Below, in pieces: positions 8,486 through 35,476 of a DNA stretch of 40,000 bases. Numbering within the stretch: position 1 is the stretch's first letter; every line of letters begins with the position of its first letter. Below the pieces are notes generated by a model. The model had not been told where the DNA came from and did not search any database. It saw only the letters and a list, made by a program, of their open reading frames with translations. Both the position numbers and the translations under genes were made by a program. The stretch is from Neisseriaceae bacterium CLB_ANTARCTIC_008 (GTDB taxonomy: Bacteria; Pseudomonadota; Gammaproteobacteria; Burkholderiales; Neisseriaceae), in assembly GCA_041228285.1 (NCBI GenBank), contig CP166133.1, positions 1,853,380 through 1,893,379 of the forward strand. The letters are read 5' to 3'.

Positions 8486-8591
8486 ATCCCTCAGAAACTA
8501 ATTGAATGTTTAATTTTCTCGTCATGAATTTCATATTAATACTCCCTTACTCTATTATTGCAAAACTACCTTAAGTAGAATGTATAGACAC

Positions 8592-8619
8592 AAAAAAACT
8601 TAACAAGTTGCTTGTTAAG
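8592..8619 (-). terminator. intrinsic terminator in the 8486-9073 gap
   Basis: Minus strand reads CTTAACAAG-caa-CTTGTTAAG followed by T7. Confidence 0.65.
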
Positions 8620-9073: not shown

Positions 9074-11553
<2,480 letters not shown>

Positions 11554-11554
<1 letters not shown>

Positions 11555-12039
11555 TACGCACCACCTTCTTTTAGGCGGACAATCTCTGTATCAGCTTCGG
11601 CGATCAGCTGATCTAGCTCTTCCAATTCACTGGCAAAAGCTTCTTCTTTGCGTTTGGTTGTTGATTTAAGACCCTTGGGCATCACCACTCTTTTACGAGA
11701 CAAGGCCTTCTGAAAGCGGGTCGAATTGGCTTCGGCCGACTTGATGATTTCTGCGATTGATTTACGGACGTCGTCCTGCTCTTTGATGGGCAGGATTTTA
11801 CCGTTCAGGCGGACTTGATAGATGTCACCGGTGGACTTGACGCGCAACACCAGCTGCTGACTATCGGCCAAGGCAATACAAATTTCACGGTATGAAATAC
11901 TGTTTTCGCGCTTGGTTTTATCGCCCACCCATGATGAGGCGATTTCGGCGCCCGCGCGCTTGAATACAGACACCAGTTTTTTAGGTGCTGTTTTAGGATT
12001 TGGGATCAACTCGTCCCAAGAAAATAGATCGTTCGACAT
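11554..12039 (-). CDS. hypothetical protein (161 aa from second Met)
   Basis: ORF between TerL and the 826-aa gene. The track's first ATG lies inside a hairpin/T-run, so the second Met (12039) is preferred. C-terminal coiled-coil-like tail. Confidence 0.5.
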
Positions 12040-12071
12040 AAAAAAGCCCACTGTGCGTTAACAATGGGCTT
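12040..12071 (-). terminator. hairpin plus T-run between terL and the next gene
   Basis: AAGCCCA (12044-12050) pairs with TGGGCTT (12065-12071); T6 follows on the minus strand. Near-copy of the hairpin at 15481-15510. Confidence 0.45.
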
Positions 12072-12116
12072 ATTATGAGTTTGTTTAAATAGGCTTAATG
12101 GCCCCGTTCCCTTTCT

Positions 12117-13700: not shown

Positions 13701-13703
13701 AGG

Positions 13704-13946
13704 TTATCTCCCAAGGCCTTTAATTAGGTTGGACAGCCCATTGGCTATGGTTTTACAAATCGCCTCTGCTGCGCGCTGAATGCTCTCAACGATGATTTTC
13801 ATTTTCTGGGCCTCATCGTCGTTTTCAATATGATTTTTCCACGCCTTGGTTGCGACCAGGTCATCAATGAACGATACCGGCTGACTAAGAATTTCACTAA
13901 AAGGCTGTCGTGCTTCAAGTGCCAGGCTAGACACCAGCGACATCAT
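13704..13946 (-). CDS. small hypothetical protein (80 aa) upstream of terL
   Basis: Only the C-terminal part of the 154-aa track ORF does not overlap the 273-aa gene. ATG-ATG at 13946/13943; stop 4 nt before the terL start. Confidence 0.4.
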   Translation of the reverse strand: MMSLVSSLALEARQPFSEILSQPVSFIDDLVATKAWKNHIENDDEAQKMKIIVESIQRAAEAICKTIANGLSNLIKGLGR

Positions 13947-14748
13947 ATCCGCCCCATGCTTCAAACGCGTCTTCGCTGATAAGGGAATCAAATTGAAATC
14001 GGTAGGGTGGCAAACCCTCACCCCCTTTCCCTTCATCCCATGGCACCAACACAAATCCATCATCAAAAACACGCAACCGCACGATATGATCCATGATGGC
14101 CGTACCGGTATAAAACTCGCCCAACAGGGTTTTGTATGAGCTGGCGGGCATGGCCAATAGTGTCTCAATGTTGTTCTTGATAAAGCTGTCGATGCTCACC
14201 TCGTCAAACACATTCATGTCGGTACCGGCCGCATGGACTTGTGCCGCGATACAGGCCATCTCCCATGCTGCATCTTTATTTGATACACCCCGCACATCCC
14301 CACGCAACACGGCGCGCTCCACAGCCTCAACCCATGCCGTGGTTAACGGGCGCATTTCCAGCTGGTCTGGATCATCGGACCCTGCATCCAATTCAAAACG
14401 ATACACCAGCTCATCAGGCCCAACGCTGTATTTGTTTTTTGTGATGGGATGGTCGGCGCCGTCACGGCCCAAATAATCAATAATCGTAGCCTCAAGGTCT
14501 GGCCCAATATTGAATGCCTCGCCCTTGTTGTGAAGGTGGACTTGGTAATGGATCACCGCGGCGTACCGCTCTTGGGCCGTCCAATGAGCCAGCGCTAGGT
14601 TGCTGTCCAACAAGAACGCTTCAATGGATTTGGTGATCCCAAGTTCATTGTGCTCAACGGGCATTTTGCACAGCTCAATAATCGAGCCAACACTCAGCTC
14701 TTTAAACGTCGCATTAATGCGTGACGTCACGAATGGCGGTATATGCAT
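13927..14748 (-). CDS. hypothetical protein (273 aa) between terS and terL
   Basis: ORF starts 3 nt after the terS stop; no motif recognised. Confidence 0.6.
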   Translation of the reverse strand: MHIPPFVTSRINATFKELSVGSIIELCKMPVEHNELGITKSIEAFLLDSNLALAHWTAQERYAAVIHYQVHLHNKGEAFNIGPDLEATIIDYLGRDGADHPITKNKYSVGPDELVYRFELDAGSDDPDQLEMRPLTTAWVEAVERAVLRGDVRGVSNKDAAWEMACIAAQVHAAGTDMNVFDEVSIDSFIKNNIETLLAMPASSYKTLLGEFYTGTAIMDHIVRLRVFDDGFVLVPWDEGKGGEGLPPYRFQFDSLISEDAFEAWGGYDVAGV

Positions 14749-14750
14749 GG

Positions 14751-15461
14751 TTATTCCTCATCATCTAAGTTTTGATTGGCCAGTCGGCGTCGAACCTCCT
14801 CGGCCTTAGCCATGGCCAAAGCCATATTCTTCTCACCAATTGCCTGAAGTGCTTGGATGCTCTCTTCGCTAGCGTCAACGTTCAGATCAACAGACACTTG
14901 GTTGCCCCACAGCTTCGGACGCAACTTAGAGGCCGTCCATTTACGGGCCTCAATCATCAGCTTGGAACGCTCCACGCTCTTCTTGCTGTAATCAATATCC
15001 CCATTAGCCTTAAATTCAACGTCCAATGACGAATCATCGGCAATACGCACAATCTCATCAGCCAGGTAATCTGCTCGAATCGCACAGGCATCATCGTACT
15101 GCCCGCGAAGCTCACCTTTCTCATCAGCATGTAGAGCCCGATAAAACCGAATACGTGGCGGCATCCCCTCTTTTCGGCAAACATCAGCAATAGACATACC
15201 GCCCATGATGTACTCCATCATCTGAGCGAATATTTCAGGTGGTATGGTGTGGCCAGGCAATTCAGACTTAGGCTTCGATTTGGGCCCGCTTTTAGCGGCC
15301 ACCTTTGCCTTTGCGGCCGCTTTAGGCTTAACCGGTGCCTTCTGCTTTGAGGCAGGCTCTTTGGCCGGGGCCTTCGCACTTGTAGCACTGGCCTTTGAGG
15401 CCGTTTTTTTAGTTTTTTCGGCCAGGGCAGAATCAGTCTTTTTGCTTTCAGATTTACTCAT
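14751..15461 (-). CDS. terS: terminase small subunit
   Basis: Lys/Ala-rich N-terminus; HTH-like GMSIADVCRKEGMPPRIRFYRAL; C-terminal ERSKLMIEARKWTASKLRPKLWG is typical of phage TerS families; lies upstream of terL. Confidence 0.7.
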   Translation of the reverse strand: MSKSESKKTDSALAEKTKKTASKASATSAKAPAKEPASKQKAPVKPKAAAKAKVAAKSGPKSKPKSELPGHTIPPEIFAQMMEYIMGGMSIADVCRKEGMPPRIRFYRALHADEKGELRGQYDDACAIRADYLADEIVRIADDSSLDVEFKANGDIDYSKKSVERSKLMIEARKWTASKLRPKLWGNQVSVDLNVDASEESIQALQAIGEKNMALAMAKAEEVRRRLANQNLDDEE

Positions 15462-15475
15462 GCAATCCTTCCCAT

Positions 15476-15747: not shown

Positions 15748-16044
15748 CTAGACTGGTACAACTCCCACACGCAATCCCATAGCAGCTAATAGTTTGCTTA
15801 CCGTCTCATAACGTGGCTTAGCATCAGGAGCCAGTGTTTTATAAAGACTTTCACGGCCCAACCCTGCATCTTTCGCTACCTGCGTCATACCCCTAGCCTT
15901 AGCCACGTCAGAAATAGCAGCCAACAACACATTAAGATCACCGTCTTGCTCTACACTGGCCAGTGCCTCATTAATGTACTCAGCGATCACCTCTTCATTG
16001 TCTAGGTAGTCGGCAATATCAAAATTTAATAATTTATCGTTCAT
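15748..16044 (-). CDS. addiction-module antidote protein, HigA/XRE family
   Basis: …DVAKARGMTQVAKDAGLGRESLYKTLAPDAKPRYETVSKLLAAMGLRV is the classic pattern of the antidote partnered with killer proteins; starts 3 nt after the toxin stop. Confidence 0.85.
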   Translation of the reverse strand: MNDKLLNFDIADYLDNEEVIAEYINEALASVEQDGDLNVLLAAISDVAKARGMTQVAKDAGLGRESLYKTLAPDAKPRYETVSKLLAAMGLRVGVVPV

Positions 16045-16046
16045 AG

Positions 16047-16337
16047 CTATACCTCCTTGGCCATTTCCTTGGCCTTTACAATATCTGCCTGCTGGCTACT
16101 TTTGTCACCACCAGCCAACATGATAATAAGTACATTTTCCCTCATGGTGTAATAAAGACGATAACCAGCGCCTTCTGTGATACGCATCTCACTGACGCCA
16201 TCACCAAGGCTTTTAATGTCACCCAAATTACCCCCCATCGCCCTACGTAAGCGCACAAGCACTTTTGCTTTGGCTCGGTTGTCCCTCATGCTAGACAGCC
16301 ATTTAGCGAACATCTCGGTTTGTTGAATACTGTACAT
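16047..16337 (-). CDS. type II toxin, RelE/ParE superfamily (addiction-module killer protein)
   Basis: MYSIQQTEMFAKWLSSMRDNRAKAKVLVRLRRAMGGNLGDIKSLGDGVSEMRI…GYRLYY… matches the killer-protein family architecture. Confidence 0.85.
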   Translation of the reverse strand: MYSIQQTEMFAKWLSSMRDNRAKAKVLVRLRRAMGGNLGDIKSLGDGVSEMRITEGAGYRLYYTMRENVLIIMLAGGDKSSQQADIVKAKEMAKEV

Positions 16338-21437: not shown

Positions 21438-21668
21438 TTAGGCAGCAATCAGCTCAGGCCAATTTTCATGCCAATCATGAGGGCGCAACATTTTTCGGTT
21501 AATTAATCCGCTTGTTTCAGCCTCAATTCGTACACAAAGCTTTGTACCAAGTGGCCGCTTAGTTGATGCGGATTTTCGGAGGTAATTAATGCTCGTCTGA
21601 GTATTTCGCTCAAACTCCTCTCTCCCTGCCTGGCTTAAAGAATTCAAAAATTTTATTAACTCTTCCAT
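21438..21668 (-). CDS. Cro/YdaS-like HTH protein
   Basis: Divergent from the repressor; AGGAAA RBS before the ATG at 21668; …SINYLRKSASTKRPLGTKLCVRIEAETSGLINRKMLRP…. Confidence 0.65.
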   Translation of the reverse strand: MEELIKFLNSLSQAGREEFERNTQTSINYLRKSASTKRPLGTKLCVRIEAETSGLINRKMLRPHDWHENWPELIAA

Positions 21669-21794
21669 GGTAATTTTCCTATTACTAATTGGTAATATTA
21701 TTACCCAAAACAAAATCAAGATCAACACCTTTTGGTGTTTTACCTTTTTAGTAATTATTGAGAGAATAACGACTGCATCTTAAGAGGCTACTAA
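21669..21794. promoter_or_regulatory. immunity control region (OR-type operators, divergent promoters)
   Basis: Palindromes ATTACT-aatt-GGTAAT (21681-21696) and AACACC-tttt-GGTGTT (21724-21739); TTTACC-N5-AGTAAT (21739-21755). On the minus strand, TTGATC, ~16-17 nt, then TAATAA/TAATAT reads towards cro. Confidence 0.6.
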
Positions 21795-22490
21795 ATGACA
21801 ACGGCAGATATTCGCAGAGCGAATTTAAAAAAATGGATTGATGAAAAGCACAATGGCACACAGGCCAGCTTTGTTGCGCTAACTGGCATTAACCAGGGCG
21901 AGCTATCAGGGCTTCTAAATAAAAAGTCCTTCGGAGAGAAAAAAGCTAGATCCCTAGAAAAGATTGCGGGCATGCCTGAAATGTGGCTAGACACCCCAGT
22001 GATAACAAAGGAGTCTAACGTCAGCGATATCGGCCGCCCTCACCTATGGAGTAGCAACGACCCATTACCTGAAGAGGATTATGTCTTTTTGCCATTCTAC
22101 AAAGACATTGCCCTTTCTGCCGGCACGGGCTGCTTTTCTACGGATGACCACAACGGCTATAAGCTGCCATTTGCTAAATCAACACTAAGACGCCATAACG
22201 TTCAATACGACCAAGCTGTATGTGTAACCGTGAGCGGCAACTCAATGGAGCCAGTCCTACCAGACGGCACGACCGTTAGCGTGAACATGGCCGACAAACG
22301 CATCGTGGACGGCAAGATTTACGCTATTTGCCAAGGTGACATGCTTCGAGTGAAGCGCCTTTATGCTCTACCTGGTGGGAAAGTCCGCATTAGTAGCTAT
22401 AACGGTGATGAACACCCAGACGAAATCGAGCCTACTGGTGATGTCGAGATCATTGGCCGTGTATTTAATTGGTCAGTCATGGACGTGTAG
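21795..22490 (+). CDS. cI-like repressor (N-terminal HTH, C-terminal S24/LexA-type autopeptidase)
   Basis: AAGAGG RBS; Ala-Gly cleavage-site candidate in ALSAGTG; catalytic Ser in SGNSMEP and Lys in LRVKRL. Confidence 0.9.
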   Translation: MTTADIRRANLKKWIDEKHNGTQASFVALTGINQGELSGLLNKKSFGEKKARSLEKIAGMPEMWLDTPVITKESNVSDIGRPHLWSSNDPLPEEDYVFLPFYKDIALSAGTGCFSTDDHNGYKLPFAKSTLRRHNVQYDQAVCVTVSGNSMEPVLPDGTTVSVNMADKRIVDGKIYAICQGDMLRVKRLYALPGGKVRISSYNGDEHPDEIEPTGDVEIIGRVFNWSVMDV

Positions 22491-22786: not shown

Positions 22787-23278
22787 TTGAATATTAAAAC
22801 CATAACCGATCAAGATTTAGACGATCTTATTAAATGCCATAAAAGGGCAACTAAAAATGCCAGGGATATCCCTGATAAGCGGCATATAAAAAAAGACTTT
22901 TCTTTAGTCGCCAGCAAATACCCTGAGTATAAGTTCACTCTCTACATTAGGCATAGCCTTGAGATGGAGGATGATTATACTGTGGGCCTAAGGGTTAGCC
23001 TACCCAAAGAAAAAAATCCCTTAACTCTAGTAAGATTTAATGGTAGTAGCCATGGGCATAAAAATGTACTAGAGGATGAGTCATTTCCTTTTAATGAACA
23101 TATTCACAAAGCAACTGAGCGCTATATCAAAGCGAAGCTAAAAGCTGAGGGATACGCCCTAGTCACAGATCAATACACCACTGTTGAAGGAGCCTTGCTT
23201 CACGCCTGTGAAATATGCAATATTACAGGTATACTTGCTAATACAATATCAGCGGCCAATCAGGACTTGTTTAACTAA
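22787..23278 (+). CDS. hypothetical protein (163 aa), first gene of a two-gene cassette
   Basis: TTG start with AGAGG RBS 7 nt upstream; AT-rich; His-rich centre (RFNGSSHGHKNV…NEHIHKATE); stop 1 nt before the next ATG. Confidence 0.55.
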   Translation: MNIKTITDQDLDDLIKCHKRATKNARDIPDKRHIKKDFSLVASKYPEYKFTLYIRHSLEMEDDYTVGLRVSLPKEKNPLTLVRFNGSSHGHKNVLEDESFPFNEHIHKATERYIKAKLKAEGYALVTDQYTTVEGALLHACEICNITGILANTISAANQDLFN

Positions 23279-23279
23279 A

Positions 23280-24056
23280 ATGATTACAGCAGAACACATC
23301 GAAAGAATATTGTGCACCAGCTTTTGCACAGATATTCAAACCAGAGAACGAAAAGATGGATGGATACAAGTATCCACCCCTTTCGTTGGTCGCGATGGTG
23401 ATATCTACAACATTTTCTTAAAACAAAAAAATGGTATTGTTAGAGTATCTGACCGCGGTTCAACCATTATGCGGCTAAGTTATGAGACAGACTTAAAGAC
23501 TTTAACTGGTGCACGACAAGAAACTTTGATTCAAATTACGGATGAACAAGGTGTCTTATATGATGATGGTGAGATTTACACAGAAACGATTGCGAGCAAT
23601 ATAGGCAGTGCTGTTTTTAAACTTGGACAAGCACTAACAAGAGTGTCAGATATTGGCCTCTGGTCCGCAGGAAGAATTAAGTCAACATTTTACGAAGACT
23701 TAGAATGCACACTTGATGATATTCTAGACAAGCATAATATTCATAAGGATTATTGTATCCCAGACCAGGTTAATTCAAGCAACTATCCTATTGACTATTA
23801 CCTACAAGGGGAAAGTAGCAAACCATTGTATTTATTTGGTGTACCCGACTCATCAAAAGCAAGGCTAACAACAATTGTTTTAAAACAATTAGAAGTATGG
23901 AATCAAAATTTTGATTCTATCGTTGTCTTAAGCAAGATGGATGATATACCAAAATCTGATTTAGCTAGACTTATGGATGCTGCCAATGACATAGTCCCCT
24001 CAATAAGTGACACAGCTTCTATCCACAAGAAAATTAATCACCGACTATCTGCATAA
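23280..24056 (+). CDS. DUF1828/DUF1829-like protein (258 aa)
   Basis: The track ORF is trimmed to the ATG at 23280, which is translationally coupled to the upstream gene. N-terminus …GWIQVSTPFVGRDGDIYNIFLKQKNGIVRVSDRGSTIMRLSY… resembles DUF1828. The C-terminal half is DUF1829-like (from memory, unverified). Confidence 0.55.
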   Translation: MITAEHIERILCTSFCTDIQTRERKDGWIQVSTPFVGRDGDIYNIFLKQKNGIVRVSDRGSTIMRLSYETDLKTLTGARQETLIQITDEQGVLYDDGEIYTETIASNIGSAVFKLGQALTRVSDIGLWSAGRIKSTFYEDLECTLDDILDKHNIHKDYCIPDQVNSSNYPIDYYLQGESSKPLYLFGVPDSSKARLTTIVLKQLEVWNQNFDSIVVLSKMDDIPKSDLARLMDAANDIVPSISDTASIHKKINHRLSA

Positions 24057-24914: not shown

Positions 24915-24957
24915 ATTACCTTTTGGTATTGATAAATCAATTACCGTTTAGTAATAT
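24915..24957 (+). promoter_or_regulatory. pL-type promoter with two repressor operators
   Basis: ATTACC-tttt-GGTATT (24915-24930) and ATTACC-gttt-AGTAAT (24940-24955) share the half-site/N4 architecture of the cI/cro operators. They overlap -35 TTGATA (24929-24934) and -10 TAATAT (24952-24957), which are 17 bp apart. Confidence 0.55.
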
Positions 24958-25284
24958 AACCCCATCGAATCAGCGCAGCACTGGCAGGACAGACTGGTTC
25001 ATCGGTCTTTAACAGTTACATACGCAATAGCCAGCCTTCCACTTGAAAGCATCCAAGTGAGTACATACAAAGGTAATACTTTGGGGTAAGTCGAACAAAT
25101 GGCTATGAACACGTATTCAACGTGGCGACAGTGGACGTACTCAAATACAGGGGACGGAGACACGGCAAAGATGAATAGCAGCCAAGGCGAAACTTGGACG
25201 GTGCCAGTGCCGCGACTGGATCGGCTTATGCGAAAACGAACCTACAAATGGTCGATTTGGCTAGATATAAAAGCAGTAGCATAT

Positions 25285-25382
25285 GGGACTGTAGCTCAGA
25301 TGGTAGAGGGGCTTATGAGGGTTTGCCAGGGGTGGCTTTTCCCTCTCTTGCACGGTCGCAGGTTCGAGTCCTGCCAGTCCCT
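25285..25382 (+). ncRNA. tRNA-like element with a non-canonical central domain (not a callable tRNA)
   Basis: Acceptor GGGACTG (25285-91) pairs with CAGTCCC (25375-81). D-arm GCTC-AGATGGTA-GAG(G). T-arm GCAGG-TTCGAGT-CCTGC (25358-74). The 48 nt between them form GAGGG/CCCTC plus GCCA-GGGG-TGGC instead of an anticodon arm. Confidence 0.5.
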
Positions 25383-25400
25383 ACCAAGACTTTAAATTGA

Positions 25401-25428
25401 AGCACTCAGAACAGAGTGCTTTTGTGTG
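25401..25428 (+). terminator. intrinsic terminator after the tRNA-like element
   Basis: AGCACTC-agaaca-GAGTGCT followed by TTTGTGTG. Confidence 0.7.
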
Positions 25429-25433
25429 AGGTT

Positions 25434-25949
25434 TTATTTATAGGCGCTTCCATGAGCCATATAGTGGTCCTTCACTATTTGGTGAAAGCAATTATGCAAC
25501 TCATAGTAATCGCTTTGTTTAATTTGAAATATAACTTTTCTTTTTGAGAGAGTAAGAGTAACCATATCAGTGTTATCAAATTTTATCGGCTCAAAATTCT
25601 CATACAGATAGAGCATTACTACGTTCACCTCATCCTCAGACAGGTCAAGAAAAACTTTCTTCGCCTGAGCTTCTGCTGACTTGATGCGCTTTTTTTCGAT
25701 GCGGGAAGATAGTGATTTCCCTAACCAACTAAAAGCAAGAACGGTTAAGTCAACCAACGCATAAGATATAGCGAAGGTTAGGGCCAGCGTAGTTAATGAC
25801 CCTGACCCAAACGGAAGGCTTCGTGGCACCAGATCGAGCCATGACTCTGGAGCAAGAAGGTAGAGAACTAGAGTTAATAAAATCGTGTACATCATTTTCC
25901 CCAAGGGGACTTTATTAAAAATAATTTCAATTAGCCTAATAAAATCCAT
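25434..25949 (-). CDS. membrane protein, SieB-like (superinfection exclusion candidate)
   Basis: Two N-terminal TM helices, then a soluble domain; ~170 aa, AT-rich, opposite in orientation to the surrounding operon. Size, topology and location are as for lambdoid SieB. Sequence assignment unverified. Confidence 0.45.
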   Translation of the reverse strand: MDFIRLIEIIFNKVPLGKMMYTILLTLVLYLLAPESWLDLVPRSLPFGSGSLTTLALTFAISYALVDLTVLAFSWLGKSLSSRIEKKRIKSAEAQAKKVFLDLSEDEVNVVMLYLYENFEPIKFDNTDMVTLTLSKRKVIFQIKQSDYYELHNCFHQIVKDHYMAHGSAYK

Positions 25950-26076
25950 AGTTGCAATTTCTCTAGTTGTGTGGGGATGGCTAATTATGCCTTAAATTTC
26001 GTTGTGTGGGGACATGACGAAAAACTATCGGACTCAGAGCCGACAAGTCCAGTAAAAGGCTGGCATCAATGATTAA

Positions 26077-26100
26077 AGCCCATTACGGTGGGCTTTTGTG
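26077..26100 (+). terminator. intrinsic terminator
   Basis: AGCCCA-ttacgg-TGGGCT followed by TTTGTGTGA; the tail is identical to that of the 25401 terminator. Confidence 0.6.
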
Positions 26101-26154
26101 TGAAGTTTTCAACGAAAGTAATCTAAGACAAATCACCCAAAAGGAGCAGCATCC

Positions 26155-26406
26155 ATGAGCACTAAGAAATCACCCCTCACTTTAAAGCTAACCGGCGCCG
26201 AAATTAAAAACCTACGTCGCAGACTTGGCCTTAACCAAGCAGCCTTCTGGTCACCTGTTGGCGTAACCCAGTCAGGTGGCAGCCGCTACGAATCAGGGCG
26301 AAACATCCCTACCCCAACAGCCATGATGATTCATCTTGTTTACTTGGCTAAAACCCCTGCTGACGACCTTCAGTCACACAAGAAGGTCTGGGCATTGGCA
26401 AAGTAG
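26155..26406 (+). CDS. small XRE/YiaG-like HTH protein (83 aa)
   Basis: AAGGAG RBS; IKNLRRRLGLNQAAFWSPVGVTQSGGSRYESGRNIPTPTAMMIHLV. Confidence 0.7.
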   Translation: MSTKKSPLTLKLTGAEIKNLRRRLGLNQAAFWSPVGVTQSGGSRYESGRNIPTPTAMMIHLVYLAKTPADDLQSHKKVWALAK

Positions 26407-27679: not shown

Positions 27680-27906
27680 TGCAATTAGTACAACCGACAT
27701 CAATGGCCAATGATTGGCACAAGAGCCGTTTACATGAAGACTGGGCATCACACCCACTGCAACAGCTAATTGATAATGTTGCCTACTGGGAAAGCCGGCA
27801 GGCAGAGCATGCTGCCGATAAATTTCTTCTTGGTGAGCGCAGTGCAATGTACCAAGTCATTCATCTTAAATGGCGTATTGAAAACAAAAAACACAGACCC
27901 GAATAA
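27676..27906 (+). CDS. hypothetical protein (76 aa)
   Basis: GTGATG overlap with the upstream stop; terminator over its stop codon. Confidence 0.5.
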   Translation: MMQLVQPTSMANDWHKSRLHEDWASHPLQQLIDNVAYWESRQAEHAADKFLLGERSAMYQVIHLKWRIENKKHRPE

Positions 27907-27917
27907 GGGTCTTTTTT
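27895..27917 (+). terminator. intrinsic terminator
   Basis: AGACCC-gaataa-GGGTCT followed by T6. Confidence 0.7.
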
Positions 27918-27995
27918 ATTGGATAACGATTATGGACTGGCAACAATTCTACGAGCAAAACCAGCGCCAACAGGAATATGAAGAAAGGCAAGATA

Positions 27996-28643
27996 ATGGA
28001 AAATAACGTTCAGGCTATCTATAAAGCCATCAGCAATATCTCAAATGACCTACTGACAGGCATATCCAAAGGGCAAAAAAACGTACAGCAGGGCTTTATG
28101 TTTCGGGGAATTGACTCCGTCTATAACGCCCTTGCCCCTGCTTTGGTAACTCATGGGTTACTCATCATCCCTCGCATGACTGAGCGCACAGTAACAGAGA
28201 GGGTTACAAAAAACGGCGGCGTATTATTTTATGTAACAGTGAAAGCCGAGTTCGATTTTATTGCAGTGTCCGATGGCAGCAAACTGACTGTATCAACATA
28301 TGGCGAGGCAATGGATAGCGGTGACAAGGCTACAAACAAAGCCATGTCTATTGCTTATAAGTATGCGGCCTTTCAAACATTCTGCATCCCTACGGAGGAT
28401 AACTCCCTAGACCCTGATGCTACCACCCACAAGGATGTACAGCCTGAGCTACCAAACGATGCAAGACAGTACATTGATAGCGTACACATGCTAGAGACGA
28501 TGGAGAGCATTAAAAGTGCCTGGCTCGTTATGAACGAAAAGTATGCAAAGAATGAATACGTGATGAGCCACATTAATGACGCAACCAACCGCCGTAAGAA
28601 AGAAATTACCCAACCCAGTGAAGTCAAAAAGGATGCCGCATAA
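27996..28643 (+). CDS. erf: ERF-family single-strand annealing protein
   Basis: …[35 protein letters not shown]…[33 protein letters not shown] is the ERF pattern; sits directly upstream of ssb with an ATGA-type overlap. Confidence 0.75.
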
Positions 28644-29083
28644 TGTCAGTAAATAAAGTAATCCTGCTAGGCCACCTTGGCCGTGACCCTGAAATTCGCT
28701 ACATGCCTAATGGTGACCCAGTAGCCAACTTCTCAATTGCCACCAGCGAGCAATGGCGCGATAAGTCTGGTGAGCGCGTGACCCGTACCGAATGGCACAA
28801 CATCACCCTGCATCGCCGCCTGGCTGAAATTGCTGGCCAGTACCTAACCAAAGGGGTCATGGTCTACATTGAAGGCCGAATCCAGTCACGGAAATATACC
28901 GGCAAGGACGGCGTTGAGCGCGTGGCCTACGACATTATTGGCAACGAGATGAAAATGCTCGGGGGTCGCGGCAACGGCCAGCAGCAAGAGTCTGGAACTG
29001 GCCATCAGGCTGAACTGCCAAGACGGCAGCAGACTAAACCTGCCCCAGTCATGGACGACTTGGATGACGACATCCCATTTTAG
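28643..29083 (+). CDS. ssb: single-stranded DNA-binding protein
   Basis: [41 protein letters not shown]…TEWH…; acidic C-terminal tail DDLDDDIPF. Confidence 0.92.
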
Positions 29084-29134
29084 ACTTGAATTTATTACAA
29101 AATCAAAACAGCCCTTATACAGGGTTAGGTACAA

Positions 29135-29743
29135 TTAGCCTCTCTTAAAGTTAGATAGATAATTATTAATTCGCTTGATGTAACCTATCAGTTCAAGATC
29201 CCTATTCATATGAGAGCAGAGAATCTTTTGAAAATCCTTATTCTCATCCTCCCAGTTTCGACCAAACATAGAAACACTAATATTCCTAGCTCTTACGTCA
29301 GATAGTTCGCCTGTTTCTATTCTTTTTATGTTCATTCTAAATACGGAAACCAAGGCTTTTAATTGATAGATTTTGATCATGAGTTCATTTCTTGCATCTT
29401 CACTCAAGAAAGCTGTACTTTTAATATAACCTTCTTCAACAGCAGTTAATTGATAGTGAAATTTAACCCTCATCTTTTCTAGAGTTTCAAAATCTTCAGA
29501 CTGATGGGATGCCATATTAAATTTATAAGCATCAATCAATATCGTAGAATTTAAACTGATAAGATTTGCATAGTTTTCCTCTTTGCGAGACCACCATTTT
29601 TGCCTATAGTAATTTTTCAATGTTACATTAACTGTAAAAAAAACTCCTAATAGAGCGATAGCTGATGGAATTATCAACTTAAGAAGGTCTGCAATAGCCT
29701 GGCTATCCATATTCATCACCTTAAATAAAAATTTACCAATCAT
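29135..29743 (-). CDS. membrane-anchored hypothetical protein (~202 aa)
   Basis: AT-rich, opposite orientation; one N-terminal TM (LIIPSAIALLGVFFTVNV); ATG at 29743 preferred over the track's GTG at 29755. Confidence 0.5.
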   Translation of the reverse strand: MIGKFLFKVMNMDSQAIADLLKLIIPSAIALLGVFFTVNVTLKNYYRQKWWSRKEENYANLISLNSTILIDAYKFNMASHQSEDFETLEKMRVKFHYQLTAVEEGYIKSTAFLSEDARNELMIKIYQLKALVSVFRMNIKRIETGELSDVRARNISVSMFGRNWEDENKDFQKILCSHMNRDLELIGYIKRINNYLSNFKRG

Positions 29744-29878
29744 ATCACCAAGCACCTTAAGGGTGCTTTTTTCGTATGCGAAAGGAAATTTATATGACTA
29801 AAACTCAACACCGCCGTCGTTTATGGAACTGGCAGGCAGTTATCAAGTCTCAACGCAACTTAACCAAGGAAATGAAAC

Positions 29879-30151
29879 ATGAATAAATCAGAACTAATTG
29901 ACGTAGTAGCAGCAAACTCAGGCCTAACTAAAGCTGACGCAGCCAAAGCTGTCGATGGTTTCACCAAGGCTGTAACAGACACCCTAGCAAAGGGTCAGGA
30001 AGTCGCTATCTTAGGCTTTGGAACCTACAAAGTAAGTGAGCGTGCAGAGCGTCAAGGCCGCAACCCAGCCACTGGCGAAGCTCTTACCATTGCTGCTGCA
30101 AAAGTGCCAACTTTCAAGGCTGGCAAGGCTCTGAAAGATGCGCTGAACTAA
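29879..30151 (+). CDS. hup: HU-type DNA-binding protein
   Basis: MNKSELIDVVA…GFGTYKVSERAERQGRNPATGEALTIAAAKVPTFKAGKALKDALN; terminator at 30173-30195. Confidence 0.92.
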   Translation: MNKSELIDVVAANSGLTKADAAKAVDGFTKAVTDTLAKGQEVAILGFGTYKVSERAERQGRNPATGEALTIAAAKVPTFKAGKALKDALN

Positions 30152-30207
30152 GCAGAATTACAGTAACCCACAAGCCCTCATATGAGGGCTTTTTTATTGA
30201 GGTGAGT

Positions 30208-30528
30208 ATGAATGATCGACAGCTTAAGAAAATGTCACGAGCCGCGGCGGACTGGTTTATTGATGAAAAAATTCGCTCACATGGCGAAGTGTTGTTTGAT
30301 GCCGAAATTGGCAGGTGGGTTTGGTTTTCAGATTTAATAGAAGGTGATTACGATGAGATAGATTGCATTGACATGGCCTTTTGTGATTTCGTTGTGGAGC
30401 TAACTAACTGGGACGAATCAAATTGGGAAGAAGTAAAGCCTGCCTACCCAAAAGGCTTCTTCTCATTGTCACAGCACAAGCGCCTGCTCTACGCCATCAA
30501 TTATCTTAAAACACACGCCACCAATTAG
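30208..30528 (+). CDS. hypothetical protein (106 aa)
   Basis: GAGGTG RBS 5 nt before the ATG at 30208; terminator GCCACC-aatta-GGTGGC-T7 overlaps the stop (30517-30540). Confidence 0.5.
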   Translation: MNDRQLKKMSRAAADWFIDEKIRSHGEVLFDAEIGRWVWFSDLIEGDYDEIDCIDMAFCDFVVELTNWDESNWEEVKPAYPKGFFSLSQHKRLLYAINYLKTHATN

Positions 30529-30553
30529 GTGGCTTTTTTTATGGGAGTTTGAA

Positions 30554-30835
30554 ATGCATCCGTTAGATATTTTAGCGTACCAAAAACAATTTAAACCCAA
30601 CTATCACGCAGCAGCCAAAACCTACAACGACCCTCCCCGCCAACCACGCCCAGACAGACCTAAAGACTGGTGCCGTATCGCAAAAGAAGCTCGACAAAAA
30701 GCAATTGAAAATGGTGAAAAAACATACCAGACCAGCTGGGCATGCCGAAACGGGCACCTGGCTCCACAATACACCAGCACGCAAAAGTGCATAGTGTGCA
30801 CAGCTGGGAACTACAAAAAGAAAGGCAAACAATGA
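30554..30835 (+). CDS. hypothetical protein with C-terminal zinc-ribbon-like motif
   Basis: CRNGH…(13 aa)…CIVC; stop overlaps the next ATG. Confidence 0.5.
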   Translation: MHPLDILAYQKQFKPNYHAAAKTYNDPPRQPRPDRPKDWCRIAKEARQKAIENGEKTYQTSWACRNGHLAPQYTSTQKCIVCTAGNYKKKGKQ

Positions 30836-31035
30836 CAAAAATAGGCGTCTTTCATTCACGCAAAACAGCTTTTCAGCGTGGCCTATCAAGCGACAAACAA
30901 ATCCTGATTATCGAAGTCGGCCTATTCTGCAAAAGCAAGAAAGGCTTGGATGTGATCTTTGAAGCACGCGAGTTCACGGATAAAGAACTGGCCCATGCTT
31001 ACTATAAAGAGTTAAGCGAAAGGCACCTGCAATGA
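30832..31035 (+). CDS. hypothetical protein (67 aa)
   Basis: The track ORF is trimmed to the ATG at 30832 (ATGA overlap with the upstream stop). Confidence 0.45.
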   Translation: MTKIGVFHSRKTAFQRGLSSDKQILIIEVGLFCKSKKGLDVIFEAREFTDKELAHAYYKELSERHLQ

Positions 31036-31205
31036 GGCACAACAAGCCGGCCGTGACACTGGGCCGCCAGTTCAACGCAAAGTCGATCATCGAAGGCTTA
31101 CCCTACTCTAATGCACGCAATGCTGATAAGCGGCTTGCACGGCTTAGAAAGCGGCATGATTTAGATCGCAAGTTCAAAGAAGCAATCACAGATATTTTGG
31201 GGTGA
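31032..31205 (+). CDS. small basic hypothetical protein (57 aa, below the track cutoff)
   Basis: ATGA overlap with the upstream stop; its own stop is 1 nt before the next ATG at 31207; fills an otherwise empty gap in a tightly coupled gene string. Confidence 0.4.
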   Translation: MRHNKPAVTLGRQFNAKSIIEGLPYSNARNADKRLARLRKRHDLDRKFKEAITDILG

Positions 31206-31206
31206 T

Positions 31207-31413
31207 ATGAAAACTTACACGCATGAAGAGTTAAACCATATGGCAAATAATAATTATGCCTTTATTACGCCAGACCAGACAAATGCTGTATATGTTGGCC
31301 TGACATCTGGCGGTGCTTTTAAGTTTATAGATGGATTTCGCAGCTACTATGCTAGCAAATCCCTTTCCGTTTTCGGCGGCCACATCACACCGGAGCCACC
31401 AGAAAATGGCTAG
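31207..31413 (+). CDS. hypothetical protein (68 aa)
   Basis: ORF in a coupled string. Confidence 0.45.
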   Translation: MKTYTHEELNHMANNNYAFITPDQTNAVYVGLTSGGAFKFIDGFRSYYASKSLSVFGGHITPEPPENG

Positions 31414-31588
31414 ATGGCGCTCAATCAAACGGCCACCAAAACACAGCCGCAACATTTGGATCAACACCGAAAGCGGTAAGTATCTAGGCATGTATGGCTT
31501 AGCAAGCGGCACTTTCTATATTTTAACCAGCAACACGTCAGAGACGGCCAAGATGGCCAAAGGCGTGCTGGGGTGGCGGGAGGTTTAA
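31406..31588 (+). CDS. hypothetical basic protein (60 aa)
   Basis: ATG at 31406 overlaps the upstream stop; the track's longer start would overlap the previous gene. Confidence 0.4.
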   Translation: MARWRSIKRPPKHSRNIWINTESGKYLGMYGLASGTFYILTSNTSETAKMAKGVLGWREV

Positions 31589-31590
31589 GC

Positions 31591-31788
31591 ATGTGTGAGT
31601 ATTGTGATGGCGTTAAAAAATTAATTTCAGTCGCTACTGGTTTTTACTTTAGTGAAGTTGAGATTTTTAATTCACACCTATGCATAGATCAGGGCCAGTA
31701 TTACAACGGGCATACTGAATCAATTAAAATCAACTACTGCCCCATGTGCGGCGATAAATTAGGGGCCAATGATGACTGTAAAGATTAG
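31591..31788 (+). CDS. small zinc-ribbon protein (65 aa)
   Basis: CEYC…(44 aa)…CPMC. Confidence 0.5.
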   Translation: MCEYCDGVKKLISVATGFYFSEVEIFNSHLCIDQGQYYNGHTESIKINYCPMCGDKLGANDDCKD

Positions 31789-32191
31789 ACCAAAAAGCCA
31801 TACCGCATTTATGTGGTTTATCAATAATAAGCATGAGCTAGTTGTTGATGACTCTCCATCCAAGGTCGTCTCAAATCAAAAAGGAGTTGTTGAGTTTGAA
31901 AATGGCATGGAGTGCACAAGTGACAATTTTGATGACTCATGGGTTCCAGTGAATGATTGGCACCTGAGAAAGATTAAAACACTTTTACAAATTCTGGTGG
32001 ATCAGCTGCCGGCACTGGGCGGCTGGCCCGAAGGGGTTGAATGGTATTCCCAGCTTGACGATGGGTGCGCTTATCTTAAGTTTAATGGAGCCATTCCGCA
32101 CCACCTTATTGGAGGGCGCCTTCAGTTGGCATCCGATCAGGCAAGCGCCATCGTCACTAAAGAGCAATACGAAGCCGCGCTAAATAGATAA
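31769..32191 (+). CDS. hypothetical protein (140 aa)
   Basis: ORF; terminator CCGCC-acta-GGCGG-TA-T7 downstream (32216-32239). Confidence 0.5.
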   Translation: MMTVKIRPKSHTAFMWFINNKHELVVDDSPSKVVSNQKGVVEFENGMECTSDNFDDSWVPVNDWHLRKIKTLLQILVDQLPALGGWPEGVEWYSQLDDGCAYLKFNGAIPHHLIGGRLQLASDQASAIVTKEQYEAALNR

Positions 32192-32244
32192 CGACACGAA
32201 TGTAATGAACAACCACCCGCCACTAGGCGGTATTTTTTTGGACA

Positions 32245-33975
32245 ATGAAAATGAAAAACCTAACCCTTGGCCAACAGATGCGCCAACAAGATTTTGGCTT
32301 TAGAGATGAAGTGATCATTGACCTATTCGCTGGCGGCGGTGGCGCCAGTGTCGCCATTGAGCAGGCGACTGGTCTATTCGTTGATGCTGCCTGCAATCAT
32401 GATGAAGAAGCCATTGCAATGCACACAGTAAACCATCCTCAAACAAAACATTATCAAGCGGATGTGTTTGAAGTAGACCCGAGAGAGGCGTGTGCCGGCT
32501 ACCCTGTCGGCCTCTTACATCTAAGCCCTGACTGCACTCATCACAGCCAAGCAGCTGGTGGTCAGCCCCGTGACAAAGTGATTCGATCATTGGCTTGGGT
32601 CGGCAAGCGTTGGGCGGGCCAAGTAAAGCCGCGCGTCATCACTCTAGAAAACGTCGAGCAAATTCTTAAATGGGGCCCACTTGTGGCGAAGCGAGACAAG
32701 GTGACAGGCCGCGTTATCAAGCTAGACCGATCAGTAGCCAAGCCTGGTGAGTATGTACCGCTTAGCGAACAATTCTTGGTGCCTAACAAGAAGGCCCAAG
32801 GTAAAGCGTGGAAAGAGTTTGTGAACTCATTAAGAAGAATGGGCTATGCCGTTGAATGGAGAGTTGTGGTTGCTGCCGACTATGGCGCCCCAACCACCCG
32901 TAAGCGGTTATTTATGGTCGCCCGATGCGACGGCCAGCCCATCGTGTGGCCGGTCCCCACTCATTTTGAAAAGCCACAAAAAGGACAATTACCCTGGCGC
33001 ACTGCGGCCGAGTGCATAGATTTCAGCAACACTGGTACATCTATCTTTGAGCGTAAACGAGAGCTAGCCGAAGCAACAAAACGACGTATCGCCAAAGGCA
33101 TTCAAAAGTTTGTCTTAGATAACCCACAACCATTCATCGTGCCAATTGCCCACTTTAATGGTAGCGAACCAGTGCACTCAGGCCTAGAGCCACTACGCAC
33201 CATTACTGCCACCCCTAAAGGCGGATCATTCGCGGTAGCCATGCCGGTGTACGCACCTGTGACCATACAAATGGCTCATGGTGAAGGTAAGGGAGCAACT
33301 AAACGTCGTGGTATTGGAAGCAGAGCAATTGATCAACCATTGAACACTGTAACTGCTTCTGGCGGTACCGGAGTGGCCACTGCCTACTTGATGCAAGCCA
33401 ACGGTGGGTTTAACACAACAGTCGGCCGAGCAGCTGACGCACCAATGACAACAATCACCAACACTGGATCACAACAGCAGCTTGTCTCCGCATTTATTGA
33501 GCGACAGTTTCGCACTGGCGCCGGTGCAGACATCAGCAAGCCACTGCAAACGATCATGACCAAGGGTGCTGGGAAGTGCGGCCTAGTTGAATGTGAACTA
33601 AGCGGATCAGAAGACAAGGCACTGCGCGTAGCATCATTCATGATCAATTATTACGGCAATGGCGACGCTCGTGATTTGGCGCGGCCACTAGACACAATCA
33701 CCACAAAAGACCGATTAGCTCTAGTCACTGTGCACATCAGCGGCGAGCCTTATTTGATCACTGATATTAGATTGAGAATGCTTGAGCCAAAAGAGCTGTA
33801 CAAGGCTCAAGGTTTCCCAGACACGTATATTTTTGACCGAGACAGCCAAGGAAGGCCATTTACAAAAACCGCTCAGGTTCGAATGTGCGGCAATAGCGTA
33901 TCACGGCCGCCGTATGAGGCGCTTGTCAGAGCCAACTATCAACCATTAACGATTGCCGCTTTGGCAGTAGCCTAA
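32245..33975 (+). CDS. DNA (cytosine-5)-methyltransferase with very long target-recognition region
   Basis: Motif I DLFAGGGG; catalytic SPDCTHHSQAAG; ENV (TLENVEQI); motif VIII APTTRKRLFMVA; motif X MCGNSVS close to the C-terminus. Confidence 0.85.
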   Translation: MKMKNLTLGQQMRQQDFGFRDEVIIDLFAGGGGASVAIEQATGLFVDAACNHDEEAIAMHTVNHPQTKHYQADVFEVDPREACAGYPVGLLHLSPDCTHHSQAAGGQPRDKVIRSLAWVGKRWAGQVKPRVITLENVEQILKWGPLVAKRDKVTGRVIKLDRSVAKPGEYVPLSEQFLVPNKKAQGKAWKEFVNSLRRMGYAVEWRVVVAADYGAPTTRKRLFMVARCDGQPIVWPVPTHFEKPQKGQLPWRTAAECIDFSNTGTSIFERKRELAEATKRRIAKGIQKFVLDNPQPFIVPIAHFNGSEPVHSGLEPLRTITATPKGGSFAVAMPVYAPVTIQMAHGEGKGATKRRGIGSRAIDQPLNTVTASGGTGVATAYLMQANGGFNTTVGRAADAPMTTITNTGSQQQLVSAFIERQFRTGAGADISKPLQTIMTKGAGKCGLVECELSGSEDKALRVASFMINYYGNGDARDLARPLDTITTKDRLALVTVHISGEPYLITDIRLRMLEPKELYKAQGFPDTYIFDRDSQGRPFTKTAQVRMCGNSVSRPPYEALVRANYQPLTIAALAVA

Positions 33976-33995
33976 CAAATCATTGAATCAACACG

Positions 33996-34019
33996 CCCCG
34001 CCCTGCGGGGTATTTTTTT
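33996..34019 (+). terminator. intrinsic terminator after the methyltransferase gene
   Basis: CCCCGC-cct-GCGGGG followed by TA-T7. Confidence 0.7.
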
Positions 34020-34031
34020 GGAGCATCCAAC

Positions 34032-34355
34032 ATGATTACTTTTTCACTAGAAGAGGCATCCCCCATTCTTGGTGCGCATCCTGAGACATTACGCAGAAAG
34101 TGTAAATCAGGTGAGATTAGAGCATTTAAATCTGGTCGCGCCTGGCGAATTGCCAAAGAAGCTCTTGCAGATTACATCAAAGACAAAGAAAATGAACGCT
34201 TGCAGGAAGTGCGGGCGGAAGGGAGTAAGAAATGCCAATCCGATTACGTAACGGAATTTACTATATCGACATTGTTACCTCGTCAGGGAACCGTATTAGA
34301 CGATCTTCTGGCACCAGCGACAAGAAAAAGGCCCAAGAGCTGCACGATAAACTAA
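34032..34355 (+). CDS. xis: excisionase-family HTH protein
   Basis: LEEASPILGAHPETLRRKCKSGEIRAFKSGRAWRIAKEALADYI (MerR/excisionase-type HTH); GGAG RBS; its 3' end overlaps int by 124 nt in another frame. Confidence 0.6.
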   Translation: MITFSLEEASPILGAHPETLRRKCKSGEIRAFKSGRAWRIAKEALADYIKDKENERLQEVRAEGSKKCQSDYVTEFTISTLLPRQGTVLDDLLAPATRKRPKSCTIN

Positions 34356-35347
34356 AGCATGAACTATGGGCCGTCGAAAGACTGGGCGAAAAACCTAAAA
34401 GAACATGGGATGAAGCCTGTGTGCGCTTTCTTCAAGAAAAAGCACATAAAAAAAGCCTTGAAGACGATAAGCAAAAAATGCGCTTATTGGTACAGCTTCG
34501 AGGAATGCTTTTAACTGATATTACCCGTGATTTTATTATGGGTACTGTATCGAAACTCAGCTGTGGAAACTCTACCAAAAACCGCTACCTCACGTTGATC
34601 CGTACAGTCTTAAATCTGTGCGCTGGCGAATGGGAATGGATTGATAGAGCGCCCAAGTTGACTTTATACAAAGAGCCTAAAAAGCGGATTCGCTGGATTA
34701 CTCGCGATGAGGCTAACAGGCTTATATCCGTTTTACACCGTGTCTATGCTGATTTAGCCGAGTTTAGCTTTATGACCGGCCTACGCCAGTCTAATGCCCT
34801 TACTTTGGAATGGTCTCAAGTCGATTTAGAAAGACAGGTCGCATGGATCCACCCAGACCAGGCCAAAGCAGGAAAACCGATAGGTGTGCCGCTGAACGAA
34901 AACGCCATGAATGTTCTACGGCGCCGGTTTGCCATTCGAAAAATGCACCAAATATTTGTCTCAAACCTACCTAGAGCTAGCCAGCTCAAAATGGACTTTA
35001 CTAGATATGTCTTTGTAAGCGACATAACTAAACGACCATTGACCAGCATTAGCTCAGAAATCTGGAAGGCGGCACTCGATGAGGCAGGTATTAAAGATTT
35101 TCGTTGGCACGACATTAGGCACACCTGGGCAAGCTGGTTAGTCCAAAGTGGCGTTGGCTTACTTGAGTTAAAAGAAATGGGTGGCTGGGAAAGTGTCGAG
35201 ATGGTCCAGAAGTATGCTCACTTAGCACCACAACATTTACACAAAAACGCTGTTCTATTAGAGACCCCACGAGCCATGGGTTTGGCACAAGATGTCACAA
35301 ATCTGGCACACGTAAAAAATCCCCTGCTACCTTGGACAGTAAACTAG
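34232..35347 (+). CDS. int: tyrosine integrase
   Basis: N-terminal RNGIYYIDI…RRSSGTSDKKKA; catalytic residues in MTGLRQSN, WHDIRHTWASW and VQKYAHL; adjacent to a tRNA 3' end. Confidence 0.92.
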   Translation: MPIRLRNGIYYIDIVTSSGNRIRRSSGTSDKKKAQELHDKLKHELWAVERLGEKPKRTWDEACVRFLQEKAHKKSLEDDKQKMRLLVQLRGMLLTDITRDFIMGTVSKLSCGNSTKNRYLTLIRTVLNLCAGEWEWIDRAPKLTLYKEPKKRIRWITRDEANRLISVLHRVYADLAEFSFMTGLRQSNALTLEWSQVDLERQVAWIHPDQAKAGKPIGVPLNENAMNVLRRRFAIRKMHQIFVSNLPRASQLKMDFTRYVFVSDITKRPLTSISSEIWKAALDEAGIKDFRWHDIRHTWASWLVQSGVGLLELKEMGGWESVEMVQKYAHLAPQHLHKNAVLLETPRAMGLAQDVTNLAHVKNPLLPWTVN

Positions 35348-35385: not shown

Positions 35386-35476
35386 TGGCGGAGGCGGTGA
35401 GATTCGAACTCACGGAAGGGTATAAGCCTTCGACGGTTTTCAAGACCGTTGCATTCAACCGCTCTGCCACGCCTCC
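35386..35476 (-). tRNA. tRNA-Ser (anticodon UGA), CCA encoded
   Basis: Reverse complement GGAGGCGTGGCAGAGCGGTTGAATGCAACGGTCTTGAAAACCGTCGAAGGCTTATACCCTTCCGTGAGTTCGAATCTCACCGCCTCCGCCA. Anticodon stem-loop ACGGT-CTTGAAA-ACCGT; long variable arm; 91 nt. Confidence 0.92.

Follow-up and report, generated by a model that had tools for sequence, protein, structure and literature searches.

We analyzed a stretch of 40,000 nucleotides (nt) from Neisseriaceae bacterium CLB_ANTARCTIC_008 (GCA_041228285.1, contig CP166133.1, positions 1,853,380 to 1,893,379; the whole stretch is hereafter called the window), and in particular the RNA transcribed from a pL-type promoter at 24929-24957, which a first reading of the letters (the original prediction) had placed in the slot that nutL and the N gene occupy in phage lambda. 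The window is a lambda-like prophage. A gene for a cI-like repressor with an S24 peptidase domain occupies 21795-22490 on the plus strand, with the cI terminator at 22558-75, and the cro-like gene (21438-21728) and the cII-like, replication and NinG genes lie on the minus strand, opposite to cI; the plus strand 3' of cI is therefore the pL side. Past the RNA locus, the plus strand carries, in order, an RsaL-like helix-turn-helix (HTH) gene, erf, ssb, hu and an open reading frame (ORF) of 371 amino acids (aa). Related loci were recovered only via the neighbouring proteins (SieB and the RsaL-like HTH protein) and exact-protein contig look-ups, which gave about six related contigs in all; those compared below are denoted L004, L005, L006, L007 and L010. 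The features of the locus are as follows.

21681-21696, no strand: OR-type operator ATTACTAATTGGTAAT between cI and cro, the reference for repressor specificity and an exact match to the operator consensus ATTACYNNNNRGTAAT
24915-24930, no strand: OL2 operator ATTACCTTTTGGTATT, overlapping the -35 hexamer, with one mismatch to the consensus
24929-24957, plus strand: pL-type sigma-70 promoter, TTGATA-17 base pairs (bp)-TAATAT, 9 of 12 positions, kept in L005 and L010
24940-24955, no strand: OL1 operator ATTACCGTTTAGTAAT, spanning the promoter spacer and the -10 hexamer, an exact match to the consensus
24964-25015, plus strand: leader, 52 nt from the predicted start, ending in the boxA-like element GGTCTTTAACA and kept among the loci
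25016-25224, plus strand: type A structured RNA core of about 210 nt, with a three-way-junction domain (25021-25129) and a 3' half (25130-25224)
25225-25284, plus strand: variable linker between the core and the tRNA-like element; L005 and L006 have a different, shorter linker, GTAGCTGCCTAGAAATTAAGTA
25285-25382, plus strand: tRNA-like element with a 7-bp acceptor stem, a D arm, a T arm and a 42-nt irregular hairpin in place of the anticodon arm
25399-25428, plus strand: terminator t1, with the stem GAAGCACTC/GAGTGCTTT followed by TTGTGTG; the stem (25399-25422) folds at -12.6 kcal/mol (z = -2.8)
25434-25949, minus strand: sieB-like superinfection-exclusion gene (Pfam SieB, PHROG 6399), context outside the RNA
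26075-26103, plus strand: terminator t2, homologous to t1 (-12.2 kcal/mol, z = -3.1) and followed by the conserved GTTTTCAACGAAAG
26155-26406, plus strand: RsaL-like HTH gene, the first conserved early-left gene, after t2 and GTTTTCAACGAAAG

The two operator palindromes that had been proposed at 24915-30 and 24940-55 were confirmed at these positions, where they overlap the sigma-70 promoter. In the 40 kb, the consensus ATTACYNNNNRGTAAT has only two exact matches, at 24940 and at 21681. When up to two mismatches were allowed, 9 sites were found against 6.9 expected, which is chance level, and the support for the operators therefore lies in the exact matches and their positions. The promoter score is likewise unremarkable by itself (13 such sites against 12 expected in the scanned region), so that the decisive evidence for both operators and promoter is comparative. 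Both operators and the promoter are kept in L005 and L010; OL2 is identical in these two, and OL1 of L005 retains its half-sites with the spacer altered to ATTACTACTTAGTAAT. The further claim that the palindromes between cro and cI share the operator half-site held for 21681-96 but not for 21724-39 (AACACC-tttt-GGTGTT), whose half-site differs and which also scores as a terminator-like hairpin. In the heteroimmune L006, cI is a different protein (239 aa) and the operators are of another type, TTGGCGNNNCGCTA, which replaces the promoter and operators of the window and is found both in the cI/cro region of L006 and before its RNA. The arrangement that characterizes a lambdoid pL/OL control region, in which operators overlap the promoter and match the sites between cI and cro, was thus found in the window and independently in L006, and the covariation of operator type with cI in two immunity types supports the proposed repressor-gated promoter. 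Homology between L006 and the window restarts a few bases before CATCGAATCAGCG, the predicted start (about 24964), just downstream of the promoter. On sequence grounds this edge is the classic lambdoid immunity-region boundary, and it indicates that the RNA is the first product of a repressor-controlled pL in at least two immunity types.

The original prediction had described a single structured RNA of about 460 nt. Its structured and non-coding character stood, but the comparison with the relatives showed not one unit but a mosaic in which a leader and a terminator enclose an exchangeable cassette and an optional insert. Three cassette types were distinguished.

Cassette type A: the window, L004, L005 and L006
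Cassette type B: L010, about 150 nt, unrelated to type A
Cassette type C: L007, a third sequence

The leader is common to types A and B and, over the extent of an incomplete contig, to type C, and its end, GRYCTTTAACA, stands directly before the cassette breakpoint in all five loci that reach the 5' end. On the other side, the 3' terminator and the following GTGTGARGTTTTYAACGAAAG are common to all loci (the last G is absent in L005). Between the window and L010, 98% identity extends from cro across cI, the defence gene pair described below and the promoter into the leader, and it ends at 25014, the end of the boxA-like element. The cassette changes independently of immunity, because the window and the heteroimmune L006 carry the same cassette and the window and the homoimmune L010 carry different ones. 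In every relative the slot is filled by some structured, ORF-free cassette. When the type A junction was used as a covariance model, neither types B and C nor the rest of the window contained a counterpart to it, and a structure common to the three cassettes was rejected; types B and C also match no Rfam family. The leader of the window (24965-25011) is complementary to 25156-25224 (RNAduplex, -42.2 kcal/mol versus -29.2 +/- 3.5 for shuffled sequences) in the window and L004 only, and a conserved helix closing the leader onto the cassette was rejected, as it is not retained in L006, L005, type B or type C.

Broad scans of public collections returned no relatives of the element; these covered BLAST of phage, plasmid and E. 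coli genome collections, IMG/VR (8 patterns or proteins), the GTDB species genomes (by cI protein and RNA pattern) and JGI metagenomes, the last with one chance match in an unannotated, coding-looking stretch with ORFs on both strands. More distant homologues of the HTH protein lie in unrelated high-GC loci. Because these scans were empty, the element seems to be confined to a small clade.

We then considered the structure of the type A core, for which three to four distinct sequences were available (one each for types B and C). The core of the window is 93% identical to that of L006 and 85% identical to that of L005, and blocks of 17-32 nt without any change lie between the helices; for the same pair of loci, window and L005, the SieB proteins are 48% and the HTH proteins 69% identical. 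Across 50 local pairs, 99.5% of the cells are paired and seven pairs show compensatory, two-sided changes, a result that none of 500 shuffles reached, and when the 3' partners were slid by 1-3 columns as a control, just 27-42% of the cells paired. The compensatory pairs fall in the helix 25027-33/25100-06 (three pairs) and in the hairpins 25040-59 (two), 25068-83 (one) and 25204-19 (one); hairpin 25182-97, which lies with 25204-19 in the 3' half, varies on one side only, the pair being retained as G-U. All three hairpins of the original prediction (25040-59, 25182-97 and 25204-19) were thus recovered, and the homologues were found to covary, the absence of which had been named as a ground for giving the prediction up. 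Taken as a whole, the transcript has an unexceptional folding energy (z = -1.74) and that of the domain 25021-25129 is moderate (z = -2.3), so that the evidence for structure is the covariation and not the thermodynamics; the covariation is clear even with four sequences. In an Rfam scan of the RNA, the tRNA-like module alone exceeded the threshold and no other family matched. On these alignments, the type A core is an unclassified structured RNA with clear covariation.

By the same comparisons, the transcript is non-coding. Two ORFs, 25099-25395 (98 aa) and 25194-25400 (68 aa), are present in the window, as the original prediction had noted in arguing that no credible gene lies downstream of the promoter. 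Among 5.8 billion proteins the 98-aa ORF is without a homologue, it matches neither Pfam nor PHROGs, and its frame is broken by a 1-nt deletion in L006 and by a 1-nt deletion and a TGA in L005; it is because of this lack of homologues and these indels and stops that we regard the transcript as non-coding. No ORF of at least 25 aa is common to the relatives, and cassette types B and C are without any. Comparison of the relatives thus showed that the 98-aa ORF is not conserved as a protein, and the claim that the region holds no credible gene is upheld.

The tRNA-like element matches Rfam RF00005 with 38 bits (gathering score 29), which agrees with the module first proposed at 25285-25382. It has the arms and tertiary nucleotides of the cloverleaf, namely a perfect 7-bp acceptor stem, U8, A14, G15/C48, G18G19 and a TTCGA T-loop, and no readable anticodon, as 42 nt stand where an arm of 17 nt is expected. 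ARAGORN made no call on it, apart from a forced parse as 'Gly(tcc)' with an 18-nt intron when introns were allowed, and CCA is not encoded (T-ACC-A follows the acceptor stem). We regard the element as a tRNA mimic rather than a decoder. A first impression of tRNA-Lys was rejected together with any other isoacceptor assignment, as the tRNAs for Pro, Met, His, Asn and Ile resemble the element only in the generic T arm; it has no match in E. coli and just a generic T-arm likeness to many phage tRNAs, and a tmRNA or permuted tmRNA was rejected as well. The window, L004 and L006 contain the element (96 of 98 positions identical), L005 and L010 lack it, and because of these absences we conclude that it is an optional insertion, an add-on outside the conserved core. 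In L010, the flanks AAGTAAGC and AAGACTTT are joined directly with no insert. At the exact site of the element (window 25285-25385), L005 carries on its minus strand (2972-3026) a 55-nt insert with the hairpin GGTTCCC...GGGAACC and near-repeat flanks GCAATAC/GCAAGAC, which may be a small mobile element. Another tRNA-shaped element was seen in an unrelated IMG/VR phage (L001 669-761, minus strand; L002 1943-2035, minus strand; L003 1205-1297, plus strand); its acceptor, D and T arms are canonical, its 'anticodon loop' spans 25 nt and its variable region 20 nt, and ARAGORN made no call on the L001 copy, the one scanned.

Next to the cassette breakpoint, the leader contains the element GGTCTTTAACA (25004-25014, +41), which matches 10 of the 11 positions of the boxA consensus GYTCTTTAANA (PMC5725501); consensus position 2 is always a purine. 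A search for boxA with two mismatches was at chance in the window, so the element is not remarkable statistically by itself. It had been overlooked in the original prediction, and its position at +41 makes the analogy with nutL closer. The intrinsic terminator claimed at 25401-28 corresponds to t1, whose L005 homologue has the compensating stem GCCCA/TGGGC. In L006 and L010, a lone terminator is followed directly by the segment with GTTTTCAACGAAAG and the HTH gene; in L005, the sieB insert comes after its first terminator. Farther downstream, the early-left operon has an unusually high number of intrinsic terminators in the sense orientation; strong ones follow nearly each one or two of its genes, over 27895-34011 (plus strand) in the window and 8374-15474 (plus strand) in L010. 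In the early-left region of the window, there are at least eight (t1, t2, 27895, 29750, 30172, 30517, 32217 and 33995), and in L010 six sites were found (8374, 9424, 10286, 12158, 15033 and 15455). No sense-oriented terminator of comparable strength lies in the early pR stretch (21700 to 17400). Pfam and PHROGs revealed no N- or Q-like protein among the neighbouring genes, and past the RNA there is no conserved ORF. The proposal of a structured RNA in the slot of nutL and N is therefore supported, in that a non-coding RNA follows pL and no N-like gene was found.

By position and context, the region is like nutL or put, and it is a member of neither. Like nutL and N of lambda and P22, it lies directly downstream of a repressor-controlled pL and an operon with several terminators comes after it; the boxA of lambda lies at +34 of the pL transcript and the boxA-like element here at +41, and just as the N/nut alleles are exchanged between phages as a unit, so is the cassette module here. 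In nut sites, boxB follows boxA after a few nucleotides and folds into a short hairpin of 5 bp whose pentaloop is purine-rich. Here, in contrast, there is no boxB: the first hairpin (25040-59) lies 25 nt past the boxA-like element and has a 6-bp stem and an 8-nt loop, and in types B and C the sequence past the element is completely different. Unlike lambda, the locus has no arginine-rich, N-like protein and no conserved ORF after the RNA, and where the N gene would be there is the multi-helix RNA of about 210 nt. No nutR-like second site was found in the window by BLAST, by the boxA pattern on the minus strand or by the type A junction model (R1), and homology of the leader to the lambda pL leader was rejected (p = 0.05-0.86).

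The put RNA of phage HK022 binds the beta-prime zinc-binding domain of RNA polymerase and suppresses termination in cis. The region resembles it as a cis RNA right after pL with no dedicated phage protein apparent and, if a cis model holds, in acting on many downstream terminators. The put elements are about 70 nt long with two stem-loops from +3, form the similar pair putL/putR and need no boxA (PMC9378689). In contrast, the 52-nt leader here has no hairpin conserved among the loci, and the structured part, with its three-way junction, is about three times larger and single-copy in the window. Homology to putL of HK022 was rejected (best local match 8 nt, p about 0.1 to 0.4). As in rrn leaders and other boxA-protected untranslated transcripts (PMC5725501, PMC4807359), a boxA-like element precedes a long structured untranslated RNA, and the tRNA-shaped element included in some loci is a further rrn-like feature. 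By analogy, it is plausible that Rho protection and assisted folding are functions in common with the rrn leader and its Nus factor/SuhB complex. However, the phage element is under repressor control, boxB/boxC were not identified and consensus position 2 is a purine. For rrn complexes, no ability to overcome strong intrinsic terminators is known.

Known tRNA-like RNase P signals or mimics include the CI RNA of P4, the C4 RNA of P1 and P7, tmRNA and the bacterial Y-RNA-like YrlA. The tRNA-like element shares with them an acceptor/T/D core, canonical elbow nucleotides, the lack of a decoding anticodon loop and its embedding in a longer phage transcript. It has no Rfam match to the C4, tmRNA or Y-RNA-like families, and it differs from YrlA in its open acceptor ends and from these mimics generally in the 42-nt rod in place of the anticodon arm and in being optional at the locus. 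Among phages, RNA-only processive antitermination is known from the put family of HK022, and elsewhere RNA-dependent antitermination is known from the EAR element of Bacillus. The conAn element of conjugative plasmids is a further RNA-dependent system that also needs a protein (PMC8191782). Compared by its description, the bipartite conAn of Gram-positive conjugative elements is similarly a 5' RNA element of a long, terminator-rich operon on a mobile element, and it differs in its partner protein and in its unrelated host clade (PMC8191782). The claim that no described system has this composition is consistent with the lack of a match in Rfam, phage databases and the literature.

The reading that we tentatively favour, with somewhat less than even confidence, is that the RNA may act as an N-independent, RNA-based cis antitermination leader. 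The cI-type repressor controls pL via OL1 and OL2, and upon derepression an untranslated leader RNA of four or five modules is made first, which would serve as a functional equivalent of lambda nutL and N made of RNA. The boxA-like element would recruit host NusB/NusE, as the boxA of rrn and nut does, and these factors would keep the untranslated transcript safe from Rho. The structured cassette would fold co-transcriptionally and stay with the elongation complex, which would then resist t1 and the later early-left terminators (through the HTH regulator, erf, ssb and hu, toward the probable integrase gene); against intrinsic terminators, the folded cassette would act as put RNA does. The tRNA-like element would be dispensable for antitermination and most likely an RNase P substrate, whose cleavage would detach the message downstream of it from the leader and set free a stable RNA of tRNA shape. 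Cis antitermination is the most economical reading because of the position of the boxA-like element, the terminator-rich operon, the lack of an N or Q protein and the lack of an empty slot. Several points weigh against it. All of the evidence is computational, and it comes from six related contigs from few samples, with covariation that rests on three to four distinct sequences. Three unrelated cassettes occur in near-identical phages (98% between the window and L010 upstream), an arrangement that resembles an accessory locus more than a device for one conserved target, RNA polymerase, and types B and C contain nothing that the covariance model of the type A junction recognizes. The pR operon has no second copy of the RNA, unlike nutR and putR; no sequence similarity to putL or the lambda leader was detected; and the boxA-like element has a purine at position 2 and was matched, with two mismatches, at chance. 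Furthermore, rrn-type boxA complexes are known to counter mainly Rho and not intrinsic terminators, the neighbourhood is full of morons, and the terminators could merely insulate morons while internal promoters drive the early genes. It is possible, if doubtful, that the locus represents a second, structurally unrelated class of RNA-only processive antiterminators, in which a boxA leader and an RNA of about 150-210 nt, with at least three alleles (A, B and C), replace N and nut, some of them with a tRNA-shaped cargo released by tRNA-processing enzymes.

The chief alternative, which we would not expect to hold but take seriously, is a stand-alone, immediate-early RNA moron that acts in trans and ends at t1, with exchangeable cassettes and a tRNA-like insert. 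Its targets would lie in the host or in rival phages, for example as anti-defence decoys, sponges or protein scaffolds, and boxA would give just Rho protection. The exchange of cassettes independently of immunity type and neighbouring genes favours such an accessory role, as the many sense-oriented terminators and the missing N gene favour a role in cis. The unit has its own promoter and terminator and sits among morons, with the defence-like pair upstream and sieB downstream; the tRNA-like element and the 55-nt hairpin of L005 occupy the same insertion point; and the tRNA core nucleotides are intact with the anticodon arm replaced, as for a mimic and not for a decoder. On the other hand, a search of the window showed no significant complementarity to the RNA, the slot is occupied in every locus, and expression of a terminator-rich early-left operon without an N-like factor would be left unexplained. 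An unlikely further reading takes the tRNA-like element as the functional heart, either as a degenerate phage tRNA gene or as a decoy for toxins that modify tRNAs or for defence nucleases that target them, with the upstream RNA as no more than its precursor leader. Phage tRNAs do counter tRNA-cleaving defences, the Rfam match exceeds the gathering score, the acceptor, D and T arms are all intact, and the element is nearly identical (96 of 98) between the window and the heteroimmune L006. However, L005 and L010 lack the element and keep leader, cassette and terminator, the upstream core is itself strongly constrained and covaries, and the element has no anticodon loop, no unforced ARAGORN call (the forced one requiring the 18-nt intron) and, with generic T-arm matches only, no assignable isoacceptor identity.

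The remaining explanations fare worse against the same data. A region without a function of its own, either a decaying leader or junk sequence that includes a tRNA pseudogene, would agree with the narrow distribution (about six contigs) and the unremarkable folding energy of the whole transcript; we consider it quite improbable, as the RNA is better conserved than the flanking proteins, combines invariant blocks of 17-32 nt with compensatory changes and is retained among heteroimmune phages. HDV-like ribozymes are known beside phage tRNAs, and part of the core (25090-25178) aligns weakly with the Rfam family HDV-F-prausnitzii (14.8 bits, E = 4.8), in an alignment that includes CGGCAAAGATG versus CGGCUAAGAUG. 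However, a self-cleaving ribozyme that processes the transcript is highly improbable and was rejected: the score is far under the gathering score of 44, P1 has just four clean pairs, and the proposed P2 strand (25100-06) covaries with another partner upstream, 25027-33. Least credible of all is a small protein from 25099-25395 or 25194-25400. Both ORFs exist in the window, but the database searches of 5.8 billion proteins, Pfam and PHROGs gave no homologue, the frame is broken in L006 and L005, types B and C have no ORF of at least 25 aa, the 98-aa ORF crosses the tRNA-like element and the substitutions in the helices are compensatory.

If the RNA acts in cis, a larger, boxA-linked RNA from a different bacterial class would show that very different RNAs are able to reprogram RNA polymerase, and three natural variants would be at hand for comparison. 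If it acts in trans instead, the locus would be a hot spot of exchangeable early non-coding RNAs, including a tRNA mimic, and relevant to anti-defence biology; to our knowledge, few such loci have been described for temperate phages. Either way, the type A core, as an unclassified structured RNA with clear covariation, merits a family model.

Several neighbouring genes also deserve mention. The product of sieB is 100% identical to SieB of Neisseriaceae bacterium CLB008, which therefore probably harbours this prophage. The gene is flanked by the homologous terminators t1 and t2 (25399-26103), and because L006 and L010 have a single terminator and no sieB, it looks like a moron that was apparently inserted into the terminator region. 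Read-through from pL would run antisense to sieB, and just upstream of the sieB start, a direct repeat, GTTGTGTGGGGA, occurs at 25966-25977 and 26001-26012 and may be a regulator site. Between the cI terminator and pL, in the position of rexAB in lambda, lies a pair of DUF6978 and DUF1828 genes (22787-24056, plus strand). In PADLOC, this pair corresponds to the candidate defence pair PDC-M24, at 4.5e-20 for the B component and weakly for the A component; it has no counterpart in L005, and three other genes take its place in L006. At the end of the early-left operon, a tRNA-Ser(TGA) gene (35386-35476, minus strand) adjoins the 371-aa ORF (34232-35347, plus strand), and we take these to be probably the integrase gene and the attachment site, and hence the prophage boundary. 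Finally, a Gp49-like (HigB-type) gene and an HI1420-type antidote gene (15748-16337, minus strand) form a probable toxin-antitoxin pair inside the prophage.

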